Assembly (NCBI RefSeq): GCF_056712565.1
Contig: NZ_CM160072.1
Length of the DNA: 64,000 bases
Reading direction: 5' to 3' (one strand)
Shown: positions 7,814 through 46,483 of the stretch, one piece after another
How the letters are laid out: every line of letters begins with the position of its first letter
Numbering within the stretch: the first letter of the stretch is position 1
Made by a program: the position numbers and the translations under genes
Notes under the pieces: generated by a model
What the model was told of the DNA's origin: nothing
What the model saw: only the letters and a program-made list of their open reading frames with translations
Database searches by the model: none

Positions 7814-7997
7814 CCTGTTGTCCCATAACGTGTTGTTTAATTATTTGAGCCTAACTTTACCTGTGCATTCAGCAATGGGTAAAGTCTGGTTTATCGTTGG
7901 TTTAGTTGCCAGCAGGTATTATATCGCCATAAATGCTACGAATATTATTGGATTCTCCTTATTATTTGCGGCGCTTTTTTCACTTACCGGAGGTTAT

Positions 7998-8051
7998 ATG
8001 GAACCTGATCCCACGCCTCTCCCTCGACGGAGATTAAAACTTTTCCGGTAA
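7998..8051 (+). CDS. mgtL: mgtA leader peptide (proline-rich, 17 aa)
   Basis: [17 protein letters not shown] short ORF in the mgtA 5' leader; embedded in an artefactual longer six-frame ORF. Confidence 0.8.
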
Positions 8052-8191
8052 GCCCGTCTTTTCACGGCGTTACCGGATGCGTAAGGCCGTGACGTTTTAA
8101 CGTCCCTGCTCAGCTTTATTACCTTCAGGTAAGGCTTCGCCACGCCTGAAGACATTTCTGTACTGTTTCAGACAGTGCGGAGGGACTCCTT
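8052..8191 (+). promoter_or_regulatory. mgtA 5' leader (Mg2+/proline-responsive attenuation region)
   Basis: position between mgtL and mgtA; established knowledge of the mgtA leader. Confidence 0.5.
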
Positions 8192-13100: not shown

Positions 13101-13189
13101 ACATCCTCCCGGCAAATTGTCCGGCATTATACTCAGCTCTGAGAGAGGATCAAGAAGATGATGCAGTTATAAAGCAAGGCAAACGGTTA

Positions 13190-13678
13190 TCATGAATATA
13201 TATTCAATTTTAATAAGTAATTAATTTGCTTGTGCACCAGGGCTGTACGCTTTACCACACGTGGTGCGACCCAAACGATATTGCTGCCAGCAATCACGCC
13301 AAGAATTTCTGGCAAAGCATGGAAATCAAGGATTCGTGCTACTGCCCGACCATATCCGGCGACGGTATGGATAAGGATAAATTCACCATTATGCTCGACA
13401 CTCAGGACCATTTCAGCGACGGATCGACCTGCGTCAGGTGTGGGAAGTAATTGAGGATTCACCGAATAAATTTTTTGTCCTTTTGTATTTCTAATTTTTA
13501 TGACTCCCAGCAATTTCAGTAGTCGTGAAACGGTTGACTGACTGATACTGTCAAAGCCATGGTTTTGCAAATCGCGGCGGATTTCCTCCTGTGAAAGATA
13601 ACTTTTTTCGGTAATCAGGCGCTGACAGACCGCCAGTTGCTTCTTTTCTTTGGCGGAGTAATCATCGTATTCCTTCAT
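13190..13678 (-). CDS. ArgR-family transcriptional regulator, candidate ADI-cluster regulator
   Basis: 162 aa from MKEYDD (RBS aaaggtg upstream); winged-helix N-domain (SQSTVSRLLKLLG) and ArgR-like C-terminal oligomerisation domain. Confidence 0.75.
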   Translation of the reverse strand: MKEYDDYSAKEKKQLAVCQRLITEKSYLSQEEIRRDLQNHGFDSISQSTVSRLLKLLGVIKIRNTKGQKIYSVNPQLLPTPDAGRSVAEMVLSVEHNGEFILIHTVAGYGRAVARILDFHALPEILGVIAGSNIVWVAPRVVKRTALVHKQINYLLKLNIYS

Positions 13679-13793
13679 AATGCACCTTTTATTTATTATT
13701 ACCTGATGATATTTTTCACATTTTATAATGTGAGAGTGGTTCATTTATCACTACACCAGATTTGAAGGCCGCTTTGATAAGCGGCCTGTCGCG

Positions 13794-15197
13794 TTAAATC
13801 ATCGCGGCGATACTCAGCACAATCATATTCAACATCGTGAGAATCAGCAGTAGCGGTGCTACCCATCTCAGATAACGGACCCAGGGTACACGGGCAATCG
13901 CCAGACCGCCCATCACTACCGCAGAGGTTGGCGTAATCAAATTAACCACCCCGGAAGCAGACTGATAAGCGGTCACCACCAGATCGCGTTGTACATGAGC
14001 AAAATCAGCGAGTGGAGCCATTATTGGCATCGTTAACACTGCAAGGCCGGAAGATGAGGGAACCAGAAAAGAGAGCAATACTTCCAGCCAATAGGTCACG
14101 TTGATGAAAACAGTGGTGGAAAGCCCTGAAACCAGATTCTCAGCACTGTGCAGAATTGTGTGCGTAATCATGCCGTTATCCATCACGACCACAATACCGC
14201 GGGCGATGCCGATAATCAGTGCCACACCAAGGAGATCCCGCGCGCCGTCAATAAAGGTACTGGTGAAGGTTTCTTCGCCCATGCGGGCAATGACACCCAC
14301 GATGACCGCAGCTGCCAGAAAGACAGCAGAGATTTCCGCCATCCACCAACCCAGTACCGCTACGCCGTAAATCATAAAGGCAAAGGATGCAGCAAAAAGT
14401 ATCAGGATCGCTTTGCGCGTGGGGGTAAATTCCAGCATCGTTTCTGAACGATTTCCCAGAAAATGCGCCTGGTTTTCAGCCATCTTATCCGCCACGATAG
14501 AGCTTTCCGGACTGTTGCGAACTTTGCGGGCATAACGCATAACCCAGTAAACACAAATCACGTAGCCTACTAACAGCAAAATAACACGCAGCAAAATGCC
14601 CTGAGTAAAGGGGATCCCTGCGGCGTTGGCAGCAATGACGGTAGCAAATGGGTTAATGGTTGAGCCCAGCGTGCCAATGCCCGATCCCAATAACACTGTG
14701 GCGGCAGCGACCAGAGGATCAAAGCGGGCAGCCATCATGACGGGCACCAGCAACGTGTAGAAGGGGAGTGATTCTTCCGCCATCCCATAAATAGTACCGC
14801 CAGCAGCGAAGAGCGCCATCAGGATCGGAATCATCCACTCTTCCCGACCATTAAGGCGAGTTGTCACTCGTTCGATACCGGCATCTATTGCTCCGGTTTT
14901 ATTTACTACTCCCAAAAATCCACCGATGATCAGGACAAACAGCGCGACATCAATCGCTCCCGCAGTGTAGGTTTGATGGTTGTACAAGCCGTCGATGGGC
15001 GCTAACAGGACAGCCGTAATACCCTGTGGTTGCGCCTCAACAGGTGCGTAAGTGCCTGCAACAGGAACTTCCTTTCCCAGTGCGGCATTTGTCACCATCT
15101 GATATTTTCCCGCAGGTACAATCCAGGTCATTGCCGCAACTAACGCAATCAGCACGAACAAGATGGTATAAGCGGTGGGAAATTTGAATTTACCCAT
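13794..15197 (-). CDS. YfcC-family polytopic membrane transporter, candidate arginine/ornithine exchanger
   Basis: 467 aa from MGKFKF (RBS ggag); many hydrophobic helices; sits between arcB-like and argR-like genes. Confidence 0.7.
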   Translation of the reverse strand: MGKFKFPTAYTILFVLIALVAAMTWIVPAGKYQMVTNAALGKEVPVAGTYAPVEAQPQGITAVLLAPIDGLYNHQTYTAGAIDVALFVLIIGGFLGVVNKTGAIDAGIERVTTRLNGREEWMIPILMALFAAGGTIYGMAEESLPFYTLLVPVMMAARFDPLVAAATVLLGSGIGTLGSTINPFATVIAANAAGIPFTQGILLRVILLLVGYVICVYWVMRYARKVRNSPESSIVADKMAENQAHFLGNRSETMLEFTPTRKAILILFAASFAFMIYGVAVLGWWMAEISAVFLAAAVIVGVIARMGEETFTSTFIDGARDLLGVALIIGIARGIVVVMDNGMITHTILHSAENLVSGLSTTVFINVTYWLEVLLSFLVPSSSGLAVLTMPIMAPLADFAHVQRDLVVTAYQSASGVVNLITPTSAVVMGGLAIARVPWVRYLRWVAPLLLILTMLNMIVLSIAAMI

Positions 15198-15253
15198 AAT
15201 GTGATCTCCATAATCACGGGCATACGCCACTCGTCGACGCATGCCCGTCAGGG

Positions 15254-16258
15254 TTAGTCGCCGAGAGTTGCTACCATCACCGCTTTAATGGTGTGCATCC
15301 GGTTTTCTGCTTCATCGAAAACAATGGAGTGGGCAGATTCAAAAACCTCATCAGTTACTTCCAGTCCTTTGAGGCCGTAGGCCATCTCGATCTCGCGTCC
15401 TACTGTGGTGTGCTCATTATGGAAGGCGGGCAGGCAGTGCATAAATTTGACTTCAGGGTTACGCGTGGCAGTAATCACCTGTTGATTGATCTGATAAGGT
15501 GTCATAAGACTCACTCGTTCTGCCCAGGCTTCTTTTGGCTCTCCCATCGAAACCCAAACATCCGTATAGAGAAAATCAACGTCGTATACGCCTTCTTCCA
15601 CATCCTCTGTCAGGGTGATTCTCGCCCCAGTCACGCTGGCGATCTCACGGCATTGTGTTACCAGCGCTTCATCTGGCCAGAAAGATTTTGGTGCCACCAG
15701 ACGGATATCCATCCCCATTTTTGCAGCACCAACCATCAGCGAGTTCCCCATGTTATTTCGGGCATCACCAAGATACGCAAAGCTCAGCTCTGGCAGCGTT
15801 TTGCCTGGCGCATGTTCCAGCATGGTCATTAAATCCGCGAGGATCTGTGTCGGGTGAAATTCATTGGTCAGTCCGTTCCATACCGGAACACCAGCGAACT
15901 CACCTAATTCTTCAACGATATTCTGACCATAACCGCGATACTCAATACCGTCATACATGCGTCCGAGTACGCGAGCGGTATCTTTCATTGATTCTTTATG
16001 GCCGATTTGTGAGCCGCTGGGGCCGATGTAAGTCACCTGCGCACCTTGATCAAAGGCCGCGACTTCAAAGGCACAGCGGGTACGGGTAGAGGATTTTTCA
16101 AAAATCAACGCAATGTTTTTACCGACCAGCGTTTGTTTTTCGTTTCCAGATTTCTTGGCGGCTTTAAGATTGATAGCCAAATCAATCAGGTATTGAATCT
16201 CTGCTGGGGTGTAATCAAGCAGCTTAAGAAAATTACGGTTTTTCAGTGAAGTAGCCAT
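15254..16258 (-). CDS. arcB: ornithine carbamoyltransferase (catabolic, ADI pathway)
   Basis: 334 aa from MATSLK; STRTR and HCLPA motifs; paralog of argI five kb away. Confidence 0.85.
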
Positions 16259-16268
16259 GGGGATGTCC

Positions 16269-17213
16269 TTATAAAAATGGATCAAGCGTGGTTATGGGGG
16301 TATCAAGGCGAATAAGAGTGCCTTTGTCTCCGGCGAGAATTTCCGGACCATCTGCAAGAGAGCCGATCCCTGCAATGCCCCGGCACTGACTAACAAACTT
16401 TGCGCAGGCGGTGACTTTCGGCCCCATAGACCCGGCATCAAACTGCATTTCGTTGAGTAATTCCGGCGTGACCTGGGCCAGCGGGCGTTGGGTTGGCTTG
16501 CCCCAGTCGAGATATACTGCGTCCGCATCAGTGAGGATCAACAAGGCGTCAGCATGGATCTGACTTGCCAGTAGCGCGGCTGAAAGATCTTTGTCGATAA
16601 CCGCTTCAATCCCATGGTATCCATCGGCTTTTTCAACCACCGGAACACCACCGCCACCATTACAGATCACCAGATGATCGTGGGCGATCAGTGTCTGGAT
16701 GGCATCCCGCTCGACGATGCGTTTAGGTTGTGGAGAAGGTACGACCCGGCGGAAAGAGTGACCATCTGCTTTGAAAACCCAGCCTTTTTCTGCCTGTAGT
16801 ACCTGAGTCTGAGCGTGGTCATAAATTGGGCCGATGTACTTAGTTGGGTTACTGAAGGCGGGATCGTTGGCATCCACTTCAACCTGCGTCAGCAGAACGC
16901 TGATTTCACGTTGTGGTAGTTGATTTTTCAGCGCCTGTTGTAGCATGTAGCCGATCATCCCCTGGCTTTCGGCCCCCAGAATGTCGAGTGGATAGGGAGC
17001 GACATGGGCATAGGCGCTATTTTGAAGTGCCAGAAGTCCAACTTGTGGACCATTCCCGTGAACCAGTACAACCCGCCAGTGTTGAGTCAGTTGGGCGATA
17101 GTTTTAGCCGCAAGATCGATATTTTTACGTTGGATTTCTGCTTCGAGTGGTTCGCCTCGTTTAAGCAGGGCATTACCGCCGAGAGCGATAACCAGTGTTG
17201 GTTTGTTTTCCAT
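16269..17213 (-). CDS. arcC: carbamate kinase
   Basis: start placed at [17 protein letters not shown] (RBS aaggaag); amino-acid kinase fold. Confidence 0.85.
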
Positions 17214-17223
17214 GATCTCTTCC

Positions 17224-18447
17224 TTAGATACCGTCACGATGCAAAGGGCAACTCATGCAACGTGCGCCGCCACGTCCGCGGCCTAATTCATCACCGGGGA
17301 TGGGTAAAACGGTGATGCCTGCTTTGTCATATTTTTCGTTAGTCCAGATGTTGCGCTCGTAGCCCACTACCACTCCCGGCCGAAGCGTGAGCACATTGTT
17401 AGCGTCATTCCACTGTTCGCGTTCTGCCTCAAAGGCATCACCCCCCGTGGTGATTAAACGTACCTGGTCAATACCGAGGGCTTTTTCGATAGCATGGAGG
17501 AGTGTGCTTTCTTGAGTACGTTTCAGGCCGCCGTGACCGTCAGGTGTTAGCGTCCAGCAATTAACATCCGGGCGCACAACTTCGGGATAAACCGAGAAGG
17601 TGTCGATATCGATATGAGTCATAACGGTGTCAAGATGCATACAGGAGCGGTGTTTAGGCAGCTCAACAGCGATTACCCGTTCAGCCTGACGATGTTTAAA
17701 CAATGCCTGAGCAAGAAACTCGATTCCTTGTGGCGTGGTGCGTTCAGACATGCCGATCAACACGGCCCCCCGACCAATCACCAGCACATCACCACCTTCT
17801 AACGTGGCGTGGTCATAATTAATATTCTCGTCGCCGAAATATTTAATAAATTCGCCGCCAGCAAATTGTGGATGCCAGCGATAAATAGCGCGTAGATTAT
17901 TGGTTTCACGTTGGCGAGCAGGTTTTGCCATTGGATTAATCGATACACCGTTATAAATCCAGCATGAGGTATCACGCGTAAATAAATGATTCGGTAACGG
18001 CTTCATAATGAAATCATTAATATCGTGGGTATCAACCACCATATTTTTAATTGAGGCGGGAATTTCACTATAAGTCAGCCCACCACTTAAATGACGAGCA
18101 AGGTCCCGGTGTGACATCTCTGCAAGCCAGGTGCGAACGTCAGTAGCAAACGTAGGGCCGAGTCGGTAATCTGATATTTGTGTTTCCAGTAACCAGCTTT
18201 TGGCTTCCGGGATATCCAATGTTTGTGTTAGTAAATCAGTGAGTAACAGAACTTCTATCCCTTGCTGGCGCAGCGTATTGGCGAAAATATCATGCTCTTC
18301 ACCTGCCCGCTCAACGGACAATACATCGTCAAATAACAACTCCTGGCAATTGGATGGTGTTAGACGTTTCAGACTGAGATTTGGGCGATGCAACATAACG
18401 CTGCGTAGTTGTCCAATTTCAGAACCAACATAATGCTTTTCCATCAT
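17224..18447 (-). CDS. arcA: arginine deiminase
   Basis: 407 aa; ADI-family sequence with C-terminal catalytic cysteine region (ARCMSCPL). Confidence 0.88.
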
Positions 18448-38831: not shown

Positions 38832-38916
38832 GCCGAAGTGGCGAAATCGGTAGACGCAGTTGATTCAAAATCAACCGTAGAAATACGTGCCGGTTCGAGT
38901 CCGGCCTTCGGCACCA
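38832..38916 (+). tRNA. leuX: tRNA-Leu (anticodon CAA)
   Basis: 85-nt sequence gccgaagtggcgaaatcggtagacgcagttgattCAAaatcaacc...ggcacca with long variable arm and encoded CCA. Confidence 0.95.
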
Positions 38917-39176
38917 AAAGTATGTAAATAGACCTCAACTGAGGTCTTTTTTTATGCCTGAAATCCAGTGTTTATCTATCTTTCCCGCTATATTAACTCT
39001 CTCAAGGTCAACCGATATCAACGTACATCTACCAACATATGTTGGTACAGATGATGGTATTTCCGGTTCGATAATGCTTGTACCAACAGGGAGGGAATAC
39101 GATGGCATTAACAGATATCAAAGTCAGAGCAGCCAAGCCAACGGATAAGCAATATTAGCTGACTGATGGTGGCGGT

Positions 39177-40367
39177 ATGCATCTGCTTGTCCATCCAAAT
39201 GGTTCTAAGTACTGGCGTTTGCAGTACCGTTATGAGGGAAAGCAAAAAATGCTGGCACTTGGGGTTTATCCTGAAATCACACTAGCGGATGCCAGAGTAC
39301 GTCGTGACGAGACGCGTAAGCTGCTTGCGAATGGCGTCGATCCGGGAGACAAAAAGAAAAATGATAAGGTTGAACAGAGTAAAGCACGAACCTTTAAAGA
39401 AGTCGCGATTGAGTGGCATGGCACCAATAAAAAGTGGTCTGAAGATCACGCCCATCGTGTGCTAAAAAGTCTTGAAGATAATCTTTTTGCAGCGCTTGGT
39501 GAACGTAATATCGCTGAGTTAAAAACTCGAGATTTATTAGCACCTATTAAGGCCGTAGAAATGTCTGGACGTCTTGAAGTGGCCGCTCGTCTTCAGCAGC
39601 GCACTACAGCCATCATGCGCTATGCAGTGCAAAGTGGGTTAATTGATTATAACCCGGCACAAGAGATGGCTGGGGCGGTTGCTTCCTGTAATCGACAACA
39701 TCGTCCCGCGCTTGAATTAAAGCGCATCCCTGAGTTGCTTACAAAAATAGATAGCTATACTGGTAGGCCGCTAACCCGATGGGCGATAGAACTCACTTTG
39801 CTGATCTTTATTCGGTCCAGTGAGCTGCGTTTTGCTCGTTGGTCAGAGATCGATTTCGAAGCGTCTATATGGACTATCCCACCGGAGCGGGAGCCTATTC
39901 CTGGAGTGAAACATTCCCATAGAGGCTCAAAAATGCGTACAACGCATCTAGTGCCTCTTTCAACGCAAGCTCTTGCAATTTTAAAGCAGATAAAACAGTT
40001 TTATGGGGCCCATGACTTGATATTTATTGGTGATCACGATTCGCACAAACCCATGAGTGAGAATACGGTAAATAGTGCGTTACGGGTCATGGGGTATGAT
40101 ACAAAAGTAGAGGTTTGTGGTCATGGCTTTCGAACAATGGCCTGTAGTTCATTGGTCGAATCAGGTCTGTGGTCTCGTGATGCTGTTGAACGCCAGATGA
40201 GCCACATGGCGCGAAATTCAGTGAGGGCCGCGTATATCCATAAAGCAGAGCATCTGGAAGAACGGCGATTGATGCTACAGTGGTGGGCCGATTTTCTGGA
40301 TGTAAACAGAGAAAGGTTTATCAGTCCATTTGAATATGCAAAGATTAATAATCCATTAAAACAGTAA
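39177..40367 (+). CDS. intB: P4-type tyrosine integrase; the ancestral N-terminus upstream (ATG 39102) is cut off by an in-frame TAG at 39156
   Basis: 396-aa ORF with C-terminal tyrosine-recombinase catalytic region (HGFRTMA...RAAYIH); upstream in-frame MALTDIKVRAAKPTDKQY then TAG. Confidence 0.85.
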   Translation: MHLLVHPNGSKYWRLQYRYEGKQKMLALGVYPEITLADARVRRDETRKLLANGVDPGDKKKNDKVEQSKARTFKEVAIEWHGTNKKWSEDHAHRVLKSLEDNLFAALGERNIAELKTRDLLAPIKAVEMSGRLEVAARLQQRTTAIMRYAVQSGLIDYNPAQEMAGAVASCNRQHRPALELKRIPELLTKIDSYTGRPLTRWAIELTLLIFIRSSELRFARWSEIDFEASIWTIPPEREPIPGVKHSHRGSKMRTTHLVPLSTQALAILKQIKQFYGAHDLIFIGDHDSHKPMSENTVNSALRVMGYDTKVEVCGHGFRTMACSSLVESGLWSRDAVERQMSHMARNSVRAAYIHKAEHLEERRLMLQWWADFLDVNRERFISPFEYAKINNPLKQ

Positions 40368-40390: not shown

Positions 40391-40539
40391 ATTATTCTAG
40401 GATTATTTTCTTTGTTAAAAAAGACAAACGGTATTAACTGATGTATTTACTATTTACCGCTCCCTGCAGGGGGGATTATCAGAATCCGCGGTTATTCATT
40501 ATTTATATACATTCAATAAAAAAGTAACTGGATTTGCCC

Positions 40540-41445
40540 CTATATTTCCAGACACCTGTTATCACTTAACCCATTACTGGCTTGCTGCCGTAGATATTCC
40601 CGTGGCGAGCGATAACCCAGTGCACTATGCGGATGCCATTCGTTATAATGCTCGAACGCCTCTGCAAGGTTCTTTGCTGCCGTTAACCCGTCTGGTTTGG
40701 GCATGACACTGATGTAGTCACGCTTTATCGTTTTCACGAAGCTCTCTGCTATGCCGTTACTCTCCGGACTCCGCACCGCCGTGCTCTTCGGTTCAAGCCC
40801 CAACATCCGGGCAAACTGCCGTGTTTCATTAGCCCGGTAGCATGAACCATTATCCGTCAGCCACTCTACTGGAGACGCCGGAAGCTCGTTGCCGAAGCGG
40901 CGTTCCACCGCTCCCAGCATGACGTCCTGTACTGTTTCACTGTTGAAGCCGCCCGTAGTGACCGCCCAGTGCAGTGCCTCACGGTCACAGCAGTCCAGCG
41001 CGAACGTGACTCGCAGTTTTTCTCCGTTATCACAGCGGAACTCGAACCCGTCAGAGCACCATCGCTGATTACTTTCTTTCACAGCCACTCTGCCTGTATG
41101 TGCCCGTTTCGATGGCGGTACAGCAGGTTTTCGCTCAAGCAACAGCGCATTCTGGCGCATGATCCGGTAAACACGTTTGGCATTGATCGCAGGCATACCA
41201 TCAAGTTCTGCCTGTCTGCGAAGCAGCGCCCATACCCGACGATAACCATACGTGGGCAGCTCTCCGATAACATGGTGTATACGGAGAAGCACATCCGTAT
41301 CATCAGTGTGACGACTGCGGCGGCCATCCATCCAGTCATCGGTTCGTCTGAGAATGACGTGCAACTGCGCACGCGACACCCGGAGACAACGGCTGACTAA
41401 GCTTACTCCCCATCCCCGGGCAATAAGGGCGCGTGCGCTATCCAC
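40540..41445 (-). CDS. insD: IS2 transposase OrfB
   Basis: 301 aa DDE transposase within IS2. Confidence 0.9.
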
Positions 41446-41768
41446 TTTTTTGCCCGTCCATATTCAACGGCTTCTTTGAGGAGTTCATTTTCCATCGTTT
41501 TCTTGCCGAGCAGGCGCTGGAGTTCTTTAATCTGCTTCATGGCGGCAGCAAGTTCAGAGGCAGGAACAACCTGTTCTCCGGCGGCGACAGCAGTAAGACT
41601 TCCTTCCTGGTATTGCTTACGCCAGAGAAATAACTGGCTGGCTGCTACACCATGTTGCCGGGCAACGAGGGAGACCGTCATCCCTGGTTCAAAGCTCTGC
41701 TGAACAATTGCGATCTTTTCCTGTGTGGTACGCCGTCTGCGTTTCTCCGGTCCTAAGACATCAATCAT
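41403..41768 (-). CDS. insC: IS2 OrfA (HTH)
   Basis: starts [26 protein letters not shown]; overlaps insD in the -1 frame. Confidence 0.85.
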
Positions 41769-42099
41769 CTGCTCTCCAATGACTAGTCTAAAAACTAGTA
41801 TTAAGACTATCACTTAAATAAGTGATATTGGTTGTCTGGAGATTCAGGGGGCCAGTCTAGTAACCTCATAAAAAATCCTGTACTCACAGGGTGATGCGGG
41901 ATAACTGACGTAAGGAGTGCTGCAGGGATTTGATGGTCCCTTGTGCTGATATGAATACGGATATTTTATACAGAATACTTTTCAGTACAAGCGACTGTAT
42001 TACAGTCTGCCATATATGATTACCTGTGATCAGGAAGAATAAGTGGCTGAGGTTTCAAACTGTCTGCCGGTATATTCCTCTCTCCCTTAAAAACCATAA

Positions 42100-43330
42100 C
42101 AGGTTAGTTATCTTCGTCTGTCAGCGGATTGAATGGCGGTATATTTTCAGTACAAATACCGGTCATCCACTGAAAAATACCTGCGAAATGACGGGCACTG
42201 ATTTTTCTACTGACGGGCTGATGAGACGTTATGTCACTGGCGGTAATAATCAGTGGCACACTGTAGCCTCCCTGCACATGACCATAATGATGAACAGGAT
42301 TGGCACTGTCGCTGACCGACAGCCCAAGGCCAGAAAAGTAAAGCATGGCGAAATGACGTGAGTACCGGCGAAGGATACCATCAAGCTGGCCAAGAAAGTT
42401 ATCCAGTTTACTGATGCTGGCGAGGTAACAGGCAATTTTTCGGGGATACTGCTCCAGGTAATTATTCGGCTAGGAGTTAAGGCTGTCACACGGATTTGGA
42501 TGAGAACCCATCATGTGCAGGAAAATTATCTTCGGAGAGGATGTATCCGCCAGCGCACGTTCTGTTTCCTGTAACAACAGTTTGTCATCTGTTTTACGGG
42601 AAGCGAAGCTGCCTTTCTTGAGGAAAGTGGCATGCTCCGCATCAGAAGCAATAACAGAGATGCGTGTGTCATGCCCCCCAGTTTTCCTTGATTGGATATC
42701 CACCATGTGCTGTATCCTGCTTTTGCTGCCAGCGCCACCACATTGTTGCCGGAATCAGGGTTCTGCTCATAGTCATAAATCAGTGTCCGGCTCAGGGAAG
42801 ACACTGTACTGGAGGCTGTCGAGGTATAATCGTCAATAAATAAACCGGGTGCCGTATTCAGCCACGGTGTGGTTGGTACGGGATAGTCATACACTGACAT
42901 ATAATCCCTGCGCACACTCTCACCAGTGACAATAACAATCGTATCATATAACGGTGCTCCCGGCTGGATTTTCCAGTTGTCAGCCCCGTGCTACTCAGTT
43001 GTTCATAACGCTGCATTTCACGTAATGTGTCAGTTGTCCCCACAACTGTTCCTTTAACCATCCGCAATGGCCAACGGTTTACAGAGCATAATACGAATAG
43101 CCGTAGAGCCAGCCAGTTACGGTGGTCGCGATGGTGTGTCCGCCAGAAAATCACCACGAATACCAGAATCGCGGCACTGACCAGAAAATGATAAACAGGA
43201 AACACGGGGCGGTTCACTTTGCTTTCTCCTGTAGTGTTTTCTGTAGGTTCTGAACCGGTTCTAGCGGGGTTGTGAGGCTGATGGCAATCGCCGGGCTCTT
43301 CCTGCATGTTACACTGGTACTGCAAGAGGG
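42100..43330 (-). pseudogene. yjgX: EptA/sulfatase-family phosphoethanolamine transferase remnant, broken into several frames
   Basis: adjacent minus-strand ORF fragments with sulfatase-type motifs (HMMGSHPNPCDSL, VPLIITASD, DYMSVYDYPVP) and an upstream membrane-domain fragment. Confidence 0.6.
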
Positions 43331-43649
43331 GGCCTTCGCTCCTCTGACATTACTCAGTATTTTCACTACTACACCCCATCTGCCATCCATAACAACCGAT
43401 TCACCCCCTCGCGAGGCGTTGTTGCCCGTCACCCGGACAGACACCGTTATGGATTTCTCTTGTTGCACGATCGATCAATTGTTATGCATGCTGACACCAC
43501 AACCCCGGTGGGTATGACCGATGCCTTTCTCACTCTCTTCCCGGTCATCGTCGGCCTTCCCCGTTATTGTGGCGTGTCAGCACCCTCGACGGCATTTCGA
43601 TGGCTGCTCAGTGTTCACTCACGTTACGGCCCGCATAACCCGTTGACTT

Positions 43650-44015
43650 CCTGAAGAAGTCGTTTCAGGGAGAGATTCAGCCCTTTTGTTACCTCCTGGA
43701 CCGCTTCTTGTCCTTCCAGTCGGAGCGAGAGTTAGCCGGGGCGGACTTTCACCGACGGAAAGATCGTGCATTTCAAGGCACACACAACAATATCTGCGAG
43801 CGTGCTATCCGTCCGGTCGTTATGGGACGAAAGGCCTGGTTGTTCGCTGGTTCACTGGTGGCCGGGAACCGCGCGGCACAGATAATGAGCCTTCTGGGAA
43901 CCGCAGTCTGGAGCCACATGCTTGGCTGACGGACGTCCTGACGCGTCTGCCGGAGTGGCCGGAGGAGAGGTTGGCTGAGTTACTGCCTCTTGAGGGCTTT
44001 ACCTTCTTCGGGTAA
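43650..44015 (+). pseudogene. yjgZ: IS66-family transposase C-terminal remnant (109-aa ORF plus overlapping frame)
   Basis: two overlapping frames carry ERAIRPVVMGRKAWLFAGS...AAQIMSLLGTA and HAWLTDVLTRLPEWPEERLAELLP, the conserved C-terminal IS66 transposase region. Confidence 0.6.
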
Positions 44016-44515
44016 GTGATACCTGCCGTCAGGTGTTTGTGCACCGGGCCATAACCTGCAGTTGGGAATTGAACGCCTGACAACAGGAAATGAGCTAGAG
44101 CAGTAAACACGCGGGCTGACAATGGGTCAGAATATGAGTTAGCCCGGCGTTATTCCTGGGGTCAGTACTTCAGATCTAGCCTCCGGTACCAGACTAGCTA
44201 GCCCCTACGCAACCAAATAAATCAACCATCGTCAGAGTGCAATCGTTCATATACACTGTCGGTGATGCGCTAAAAAATGCGTTAATGTTGAGTTCCTCGA
44301 ACCCTTACCAATTAAGGGACATAGCCAGATACGCAACTGGCTGATGCAAGCAGTCTAATGTCTTTAGATCCGCTGGCCTGCGGGCATGACAATGTCAAAC
44401 AGTCAAAGATTGTGGCGTTGACGGTCAGTCTTGGGGACAAAAAAGCTCAGTATTCTCGTTGGCAACCAGATAATTTAACAGTTGATGCTGAAACGAAATA
44501 GGCATCTTGGTTCTG

Positions 44516-45941
44516 TAATGCCAGTCAGTTAAGCAACTGACTGGCTCTTTTTCGGGGCTGTGGGGTATTTCCAGGGCCTCTCCTTTACCACTCTCGGGAA
44601 GGCCCTTTCCCTTCTTGTCGGTAATTTCACAAGTTGTCCCATACTTGCAAGATCGCGCATCAGCTCCGGTATACGTCCCGGTGAAGCGCCCTGCAATGTT
44701 ATCAGCATTCTCATCACCATTCCGCATGATTCTGAGAAACTCAGTTGATTCGGCCAGTAACCTTTCAGATGTTCCGCCATTTTAATCATCTGATATCTCA
44801 CCAGATTATAAGCCAGTAAGACACCCCACAGCTCTTGCTCCACAAGCTCCGGCTTTTTACTTCTCAGCGTCAGCCTGCTCCGTTGCATCGTCTGTTTTAT
44901 CTCCCTGTATCCCAGTTCGATTTCCCAGCGATGACTGTACAGATCCCCCATTTCTCCTCCGGGGAAGCGCATGGCGTCCGTCATCGACGTCAGCAGATGG
45001 CAGACTTTTCCTTTGCGCGTCACGGTCAGCAGGCGGGCAGTCACTTCATTTCCCAGTCCCGGCCACTTTTTTCGTGCCTGCGGGCTGGTTTTCAGCTTCA
45101 CCAGATGATCGCCTTTACCCAGTTTTCTGATCTCTTCATATTGCGCTCCCTTTCTGAGAGGTATCATCCAGTGGCGGTGTTCTCCCGCCAGGCTCCAGGC
45201 ATTTAACAGTCCCAGTGAGTAATAACCTTTATCCATTAACGTCAGAGTGTTATCGCCGGTTTGTTCTATAAGTTGCTCAGCAAGCTCATTTTCGCTGTTC
45301 TTCATCGTGCCGAAGGCTGCAGCCGTCAGCAGATGGCTGGTCAGTTCCATCTGGCAGACCATTTTGACCTGCGGGTAGAGCGCCGGGTTCCCGGCATGTG
45401 TCTGGCGGGGGAAGGCTGCATCGTTCTCTGGTGTATCCGGTGTGCGCCAGAACACACCATCGATGGCCAGCAGGGTCAGGCCGCACCAGTGCGGATGCGG
45501 CGTGGCGTTATGCCAGAGCTGCGCTGTTTTCGTGAACACGCGGCGGACAGCCTCACTTCCCAGGCGCTGGCGGGCCTGAATAACGGCACTGGGGGCAACG
45601 AAGGGGCGATTGCCCGGCAGCATGATGTCCAGGCGATTCACAATCTGGTGAAGAGGTTCTTTACGCTCAAGCGCCATGCCAACAATACACCAGACCATCA
45701 TTTCGAGGGGAAGACGGCGCTTGCGTAGCGTTACAGTACCTGATTCGGCAAGGCAACGAGAGATGAGTTCGGGGTCGAGGTAATCCCCCAGAGAAGTCAG
45801 TGGGTTACGCAGAGAATCGTAACGGGATACCAGATCAAGAGCCTGTCCAATGTGCATAAAAAAATCCGGAAACAAGTGAGCGTTTCCGGATTCTTACACA
45901 GCCACTGGATCGGTCAACTGATCCTTAACTGATCGGCATTA
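44516..45941 (-). mobile_element. IS4, 1426 bp, flanked by 12-bp direct repeat atcttggttctg
   Basis: ends taatgcc...ggcatta; identical 12-mer at 44504-44515 and 45942-45953. Confidence 0.9.
44529..45875 (-). CDS. insG: IS4 transposase
   Basis: 448-aa ORF filling the element. Confidence 0.9.
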
Positions 45942-46050
45942 ATCTTGGTTCTGGTGTTTGTAACAAACTATCAGCTACAAAAATATGCTCAATTTGTGAC
46001 ATCAGTAACAAAACGCGTTTTGTTATGTGGATTGCTTGTTTTTTGATCTG

Positions 46051-46073
46051 GTATAACAGGTATAAAGGTATAC
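46051..46073 (+). promoter_or_regulatory. Nan box: three direct GGTATA repeats (NanR operator type) upstream of yjhB
   Basis: ggtataacaggtataaaggtata read directly about 410 bp upstream of the yjhB start. Confidence 0.65.
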
Positions 46074-46483
46074 AGAAAAGCAAAGAAATACTGCAAAGGA
46101 AAACAGCTATAACGTAAGCTAAAGTAATAACCTCTCAGTCTTTCCTCATTTGACGAAGGGAGTTTTATTCAACCTGAACGGACTACGAAAATGAGCACAA
46201 TGAATAAGTCAATTTTTGAAGCAGGGTTGAACTGTGCCAGTGGTGGAATATCTGGCGAACATTGTTTTTTGTTGGTGACCCAAAACTGTAGGTGGGTATC
46301 AGTTTTATCTTTCATAGAGTGAAATATGTTAAGAAGAAATGGAGGAAAAGATTGTACTGATTAGGTATTGATAACAATCAATAGTACTGGCGTATTTGAA
46401 GACAATATAATTATTTCTGGATATTGTTGAGGCTCCCTAATATTTACTTTAAGGGCTATATTAGAATAACACAGGAAACAAAT

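Follow-up and report, generated by a model that had tools for sequence, protein, structure and literature searches.

A decayed phosphoethanolamine transferase gene in the leuX island is the Escherichia coli pseudogene yjgX and falls outside the EptA/MCR group

What kind of gene left the broken phosphoethanolamine (PEtN) transferase sequence beside the leuX tRNA gene of Escherichia coli, and would its intact ancestor have had any bearing on polymyxin resistance? We took up this question in a contiguous stretch of 64,000 nucleotides (NCBI RefSeq assembly GCF_056712565.1, contig NZ_CM160072.1), hereafter the window. A first-pass annotation, made from the letters and their open reading frames, had noted several minus-strand ORF fragments with sulfatase-superfamily motifs at 42100-43330 and had proposed that they descend from a horizontally acquired, since inactivated gene of the EptA/MCR type. 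Our analysis leaves little doubt that positions 42020-43204 of the minus strand are the E. coli pseudogene yjgX, a non-functional relic of a PEtN transferase gene carried on an island. The membership of its family, and with it the proposed link to colistin resistance, required a different answer.

Results

The fragments belong to one gene that is broken across three frames

Successive segments of the Pfam Sulfatase profile (PF00884) were distributed over three minus-strand ORFs: profile positions 11-117 in ORF 42526-42915 (E = 1.9e-9), positions 141-179 in ORF 42470-42706 (E = 5e-4) and positions 235-299 in ORF 42104-42346 (E = 0.035). Intact relatives matched the same profile at E values of 1e-36 to 1e-40. 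Using intact relatives as tblastn queries, we obtained three collinear HSPs over the remnant, 43205-42993 (frame -3), 42990-42676 (frame -2) and 42685-42023 (frame -1), with E values from 1e-55 to 0.0, far beyond chance. Taken in order, the fragments carry the PF00884 catalytic domain of the PEtN transferase superfamily. Fragments out of order with respect to any single protein would have spoken against one ancestral gene; instead, they align collinearly to one PEtN transferase of ~499 amino acids, and because of this the earlier observation of motif-bearing fragments in different frames stands.

The core of the originally proposed span held up, whereas its bounds did not. The remnant occupies 42020-43204 (minus strand) and corresponds to codons 105-499 of a 499-amino-acid ancestor together with the original stop codon, which alignment to intact genes places at 42020-42022. 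The former lower bound, 42100, reflects an internal TAA beyond which 28 further homologous codons follow. At the other end, 43205-43330 is a fragment of a group II intron rather than ept sequence, and ORF 42858-43325 runs into the intron by chance. Compared with genes of the intact class in the sampled loci L006, L007, L008 and L009 and in uropathogenic strain (UPEC) 536, the remnant shows 90.5-92.5% nucleotide identity.

Window positions 41939-46500 matched E. coli K-12 MG1655 (NC_000913) at 99.93% nucleotide identity, with 2 mismatches and 1 gap in 4563 nt. The matching K-12 stretch comprises the annotated pseudogene yjgX (b4575), yjgZ, IS4 and nanX, with leuX and intB upstream, and the window has the same gene order, leuX-int-(IS2)-yjgX-yjgZ-IS4-nanX. 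By chromosomal locus and near-identical sequence, the remnant is therefore a member of the yjgX pseudogene (b4575). Many complete E. coli genomes, at least 12 of them assembled independently, have the pseudogene sequence at 100% identity, and in such genomes the NCBI annotation pipeline PGAP labels the same span as a frameshifted, truncated PEtN transferase pseudogene. We found nothing that contradicts its pseudogene status. The reference E. coli genome thus already lists the locus as a pseudogene, and the relic is not a new find because it is the same as K-12 yjgX and PGAP already calls it a pseudogene.

The surroundings confirm the placement in the leuX island. The attachment site, leuX tRNA-Leu(CAA), lies at 38832-38916 (plus strand) with a P4-type (tyrosine) integrase gene next to it at 39159-40367. 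IS2 (40529-41859, minus strand) separates the integrase from the 3' end of the pseudogene and is 97.7% identical to IS2K of K-12. Compared with IS2K, the window element is inverted, sits 80 bp away and has a 5-bp target duplication, and in the window the IS2K site (around 41939-41944) is unoccupied; the window IS2 is an independent insertion. IS4 (insG), at 44517-45942 (minus strand), is placed as in K-12. The lesions described below, the island synteny and the collinear alignment together uphold the proposal of an inactivated, horizontally acquired gene of the PEtN transferase superfamily in this island.

Elsewhere, the whole window is collinear with the genome of strain 104. At ~13189-18443 (minus strand), between yjgK and pyrL, lies an arginine deiminase cluster (arcA, arcC, argF, a yfcC-family gene and an arginine repressor), a call taken from the annotation of collinear strain 104 and of UPEC 536. 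Three plus-strand Rfam matches reached gathering level: a Mg2+ riboswitch (Magnesium-II, 7983-8098, 125.8 bits) that adjoins mgtA/mgtL in the strain 104 annotation, naRNA4 (26714-26789, 75.4 bits) and Ysr276 (27623-27817, 183.1 bits). All three look like ordinary core-genome features.

The ancestral family is closer to OpgE than to EptA or MCR

The earlier label would make this locus the relic of a lipid A transferase of the EptA/MCR type, with an intact ancestor that raised polymyxin resistance. A relation to these enzymes does exist at the level of the superfamily, where catalytic-domain similarity to EptA and the MCR models gave E values of 1e-8 to 1e-19, yet within the superfamily the affinity points elsewhere. 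When an intact relative was compared by BLASTP with five K-12 paralogs, OpgE was the closest (30.4% identity, residues 20-492 against 22-527, thus nearest over the full length; E = 3e-74), followed by YhbX (E = 1e-27), EptC (E = 2e-23) and EptB (E = 9e-12). EptA was the most distant, with 21.6% identity over 236 residues in the catalytic domain only (E = 1e-8). A neighbour-joining tree grouped the YjgX family with OpgE at 68.5% bootstrap and set EptA and EptB apart in a separate clade at 99.5%. OpgE and the intact relatives have in common the motif HxMGSHPxxCDR, where EptA instead has GSHGPxYxxRYP.

Profile and structure searches agree in keeping the family away from EptA and MCR. CptA models were the best-scoring among the NCBIfam models for intact relatives at 77-101 bits (best 101.4), with the subfamily model ahead at 92-101 bits, below their cutoffs of 404 (subfamily) and 900 (domain). 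The EptA, EptB and MCR models gave 18-67 bits and none approached its cutoff (493-1250); for EptA and MCR the cutoffs are 561-1250, and the MCR models alone gave 18-41 bits against cutoffs of 1075-1250. The closest solved structure was E. coli EptC (5zzu, E = 3e-17), with MCR-1 chains at ~3e-4. Also weighing against an EptA/MCR origin, about 1400 records of complete E. coli genomes have as their best match a sequence of the ~91%-identity class, to which the intact genes belong.

We consider it very unlikely that the relic descends from an EptA/MCR-type enzyme: on sequence comparison the YjgX family is clearly outside that group, and in what it works like it is probably OpgE-like. The 'EptA/MCR-like' label was not borne out, and the suggested relevance of an intact ancestor to polymyxin resistance found no support. 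OpgE (YbiP) transfers phosphoethanolamine onto osmoregulated periplasmic glucans (PMC3818809) and has been classed apart from lipid A enzymes (PMC10525099). Because the family is OpgE-like and not EptA/MCR-like, it would be a mistake to list this relic among decayed determinants of colistin resistance.

Truncation, frameshifts, stops and a lost metal site

Lesions in the yjgX relic were mapped against the intact 499-500-amino-acid genes of L006, L007, L009 and UPEC 536 (~91% nucleotide identity). Homology to the intact gene stops sharply at 43204 (breakpoint 43204/43205); aligning the DNA with intact genes and with full-length copies of the intron placed the truncation junction at 43205-43208 (minus strand). 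The gene has been stripped of its initial 313 nt, which amount to 104 codons and encode part of the N-terminal membrane domain; its promoter is gone too, and so is the OMP gene that lies upstream of intact copies. Two -1 frameshifts follow on the minus strand. The first, at 42992-42994, lost a C (reference nt 526) and is also found in K-12 while absent from SCU-109 and B1; the second, at 42674-42676, lost an A (reference nt 845, GGGGGAG > GGGGGG) and is absent from K-12. This second loss, at 42675, is the only difference between the window and K-12 within the aligned pseudogene stretch.

Three further minus-strand changes were read from the alignments. An internal TAG at 42470-42472, seen by tblastn and base-level alignment, replaces a TGG (Trp) that is kept in the intact genes, SCU-109 and B1. 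At 42326-42331, GAC CAT has become GGC CTT, turning Asp-His into Gly-Leu in the window, K-12, SCU-109 and B1, that is, in 4 of the 4 leuX-type alleles compared; a further change, GAT>TAT, lies two codons past a conserved His. An internal TAA at 42104-42106 (GAA, Glu, in the intact genes), likewise present in all 4, cuts off the last 28 codons.

The Asp-His residues of the sulfatase-type fold bind the catalytic metal, and the dyad was invariant in 10 other aligned family members, including EptA, EptB, EptC, OpgE and YhbX. The window copy keeps the catalytic Glu, Thr and GSH and has lost the dyad, leaving the residue set of the superfamily incomplete. Neither a complete N-terminal membrane domain nor an open frame survives: 104 codons are gone, and what is left is interrupted by two -1 frameshifts and two stop codons. 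The window copy cannot give rise to any enzyme. Programmed frameshifting or recoding was considered and rejected: the N-terminus and the metal ligands are gone, and less decayed alleles do not have the frameshifts.

The 5' end abuts a group II intron fragment

Directly upstream of the remnant lies a ~577-nt 5' fragment of a group II intron (43209-43785, minus strand), recognized by Rfam RF02003 (group-II-D1D4-4) at 43619-43758 with 69.1 bits (gathering score 49). Nucleotide identity to copies on Azotobacter and Enterobacter plasmids is 76-87%, and in the Azotobacter plasmid copy the reverse-transcriptase gene ltrA follows directly. The window fragment ends ~25 codons into its own reverse-transcriptase ORF, at the start of the yjgX remnant. 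Its orientation is antisense to an IS66-family tnpC, in the 3' end of which it lies; the 3' remnant of that gene, at 43786-44295 (plus strand), has 82% nucleotide identity to annotated tnpC genes and matches PF13817 (DDE_Tnp_IS66_C, E = 3.6e-10); PGAP calls it a transposase fragment.

A Pfam scan of small ORFs in 43205-43790 and around 44100-44700 returned no domain except the IS66 C-terminal element, and 43205-43790 is non-coding intron RNA sequence, not protein-coding. The intron fragment is absent from the K-12 and PGAP annotations that we inspected. Within the literature covered, looking for yjgZ and for group II intron fragments in K-12 brought up no paper on the intron remnant, which may nonetheless have been described.

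The single breakpoint suggests that one deletion took out what is now missing of the intron, the start of the transferase gene with its promoter, and the upstream OMP gene. The other end of the rearrangement would lie inside the group II intron, itself carried by the IS66-family element.

The 'uncharacterized protein YjgZ' of K-12 (b4277) corresponds to ORF 43686-44015 (plus strand), which overlaps the tnpC remnant. This ORF starts in the antisense strand of the intron and runs into the IS66 tnpC tail, and its domain match (DDE_Tnp_IS66_C) covers only residues 75-101. It is probably an accidental chimera and not a gene.

A graded decay series at leuX

Other alleles preserve earlier and later stages of decay. 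In SCU-109 and B1 the lesions are limited to the truncation, the Asp-His to Gly-Leu change, GAT>TAT and the TAA stop, and no IS2 or IS4 is near; K-12 has in addition the TAG stop and the -1 at 42993, and the window, on top of these, the -1 at 42675. A 566-bp pseudogene fragment is all that remains in IAI39, and in an ST131-like genome the gene is down to 159 bp, joined to a truncated integrase. As the truncation, the dyad loss and the TAA stop occur together in all four leuX-type alleles compared, these three came first, in whatever order among themselves, the first -1 and the TAG next (the K-12 stage) and the second -1 last, in the window.

Measured against intact alleles, the leuX allele has a dN/dS of 0.14-0.19, no different from the values among intact alleles themselves (0.12-0.17), which argues that most of the divergence built up while the gene was functional and that inactivation came late. 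From these substitution patterns we infer that the leuX allele was functional and diverged for most of its history and that its death was comparatively recent. Differences among the leuX-type alleles are all non-synonymous (dN 0.0066, dS 0). A protein search found no intact leuX-type allele (≥99% class) among its matches; the fullest 99%-identical protein, P0002, is already truncated and has Gly-Leu in place of Asp-His. P0002 is the 371-amino-acid ORF of SCU-109-type alleles, with 501 member sequences and a GTG start created at the junction. An exact-sequence contig look-up for P0007, a 471-amino-acid E. coli homolog, gave no match.

Decay of this gene is not confined to leuX. A common E. coli allele at pheV, P0005 (L003 712-2049; 445 amino acids, 3043 member sequences), has an in-frame deletion of ~54 codons between two RHF repeats that takes out the DHG metal site. 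Because so common an allele lacks the DHG site, the decay of the gene is widespread, and many 'intact-looking' copies are therefore also dead.

Could the remnant still do something, as a truncated periplasmic-domain protein or a regulatory transcript? The 371-residue ORF with its 501 member sequences is what gives the idea substance, but that ORF is without the first 104 residues and the Asp-His dyad, and in the window it is broken by two frameshifts and a stop. The wholly non-synonymous differences among leuX-type alleles fit drift, and in other lineages deletion has reduced the locus to 566 bp or 159 bp. Deletion of yjgX in K-12 has no confirmed phenotype; it produced no reproducible change in defensin susceptibility in a study that used it as a false-positive control (PMC4808223). 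In production strains derived from K-12, expression cassettes are also inserted at the yjgX locus (PMC10541719). We judge a residual function to be extremely improbable, more so than an EptA/MCR origin. The least credible reading of all puts the frameshifts down to faulty assembly and takes the damage to the gene to be smaller than it appears. It has in its favour that the extra -1 at 42675 sits in a G run, a typical site of homopolymer error, but it founders on the 100% identical sequence in the independently assembled genomes noted above, and the gene would be dead even if the frameshifts were erroneous because the truncation, the Gly-Leu change and the TAA are substitution or rearrangement lesions present in all four leuX-type alleles.

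Intact relatives travel with an OMP gene

Of the 5426 complete E. coli genomes covered by a DNA search, 3150 carry sequence homologous to the remnant; the best match was ≥99% identical to the window allele in 1310 records and 90-95% identical in 1442. Six of the sampled 90-95% copies are intact and encode 499-500 amino acids: L007, L009 and L022 at pheV, L023 and L024 at pheU, and L006, whose tRNA site is out of view. Intact counterparts at pheV and pheU include WP_001376499.1 and WP_096427323.1. The L008 copy is N-terminally truncated by ISEc12, which sits between the OMP and transferase genes. The first-pass annotation had suggested seeking an intact ortholog at the locus; UPEC 536 has an intact 499-amino-acid gene of the same family (WP_001026224.1) at leuX itself, in PAI II.

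At every locus inspected, the transferase gene was near a P4-type integrase and just downstream of, and on the same strand as, an OMP gene encoding a 246-248-amino-acid beta-barrel (PF13505, E = 4e-21). Examples of the OMP gene with an intact transferase gene are L007 4985-7409, L024 6985-9409 and L026 (UPEC 536) 40756-43170. The UPEC 536 PAI II locus has been described as an adhesin (PMC6174562). The opgE gene of K-12 also adjoins an OMP gene (ompX).

The intact protein of 499-500 amino acids combines an N-terminal membrane domain with a periplasmic catalytic domain of the sulfatase fold. By analogy with its relatives, the enzyme would move phosphoethanolamine from phosphatidylethanolamine to a periplasmic or envelope acceptor. 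Its gene travels as cargo beside the P4-type integrases of tRNA-associated islands, directly after the small beta-barrel OMP gene. We tentatively suggest, as a conjecture that we hold at low confidence, that a hek-like OMP gene and, after it, an OpgE-like transferase gene form a mobile and seemingly conserved two-gene module (leuX, pheV, pheU), repeatedly lost in E. coli, with a distinct role in modifying the envelope. Its acceptor might then be something besides lipid A, LPS core and periplasmic glucans, such as the OMP encoded alongside or a different surface glycan.

Discussion

The dead window copy is itself unremarkable. The locus matters little, and the useful outcome of studying it is corrective. 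The graded decay series and the intact OMP-transferase module (for example in PAI II of UPEC 536) could help to test what the intact enzyme modifies, a question that concerns other genomes and not the window locus.

Among known systems, K-12 yjgX is the nearest to the window copy. The two have in common the locus, the neighbours, the 5' truncation junction, the Asp-His to Gly-Leu change, the -1 at reference nt 526 and the TAG and TAA stops; the window differs in one more -1 frameshift (42675) and in an independently inserted IS2. The genes of UPEC 536 and of pheV and pheU belong to the same family, with ~91% nucleotide identity from codon 105 to the end and an adjoining P4-type integrase, and the UPEC 536 gene also lies at the same tRNA locus. 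These genes are full length, with all catalytic motifs and the upstream OMP gene kept, whereas the window copy has lost its N-terminus, the OMP gene and its frame.

Comparison with characterized enzymes sets the family beside OpgE without merging the two. OpgE and intact YjgX-type proteins are similar and collinear over their full length, membrane domain included, and share the motifs HxMGSHPxxCDR and YFSDHGL. OpgE has 527 amino acids against about 490-500 in the YjgX family, and opgE is a core gene (ompX-opgE-mntS in K-12) where YjgX-type genes belong to the cargo of tRNA-associated islands. The YjgX family is not an OpgE ortholog because identity is only 30% and its location is in islands, not the core genome. 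EptC/CptA supplies both the best solved structure and the best NCBIfam model, but its similarity is restricted to the catalytic domain and its scores are far under the family cutoffs. EptA and MCR-1 share the fold with the YjgX family and, in the intact relatives, the catalytic Glu, Thr, Asp-His and GSH-motif His; they differ in that no K-12 paralog is more distant than EptA, that EptA and EptB branch off as a separate clade, and that the scores of the family against their models lie under the cutoffs.
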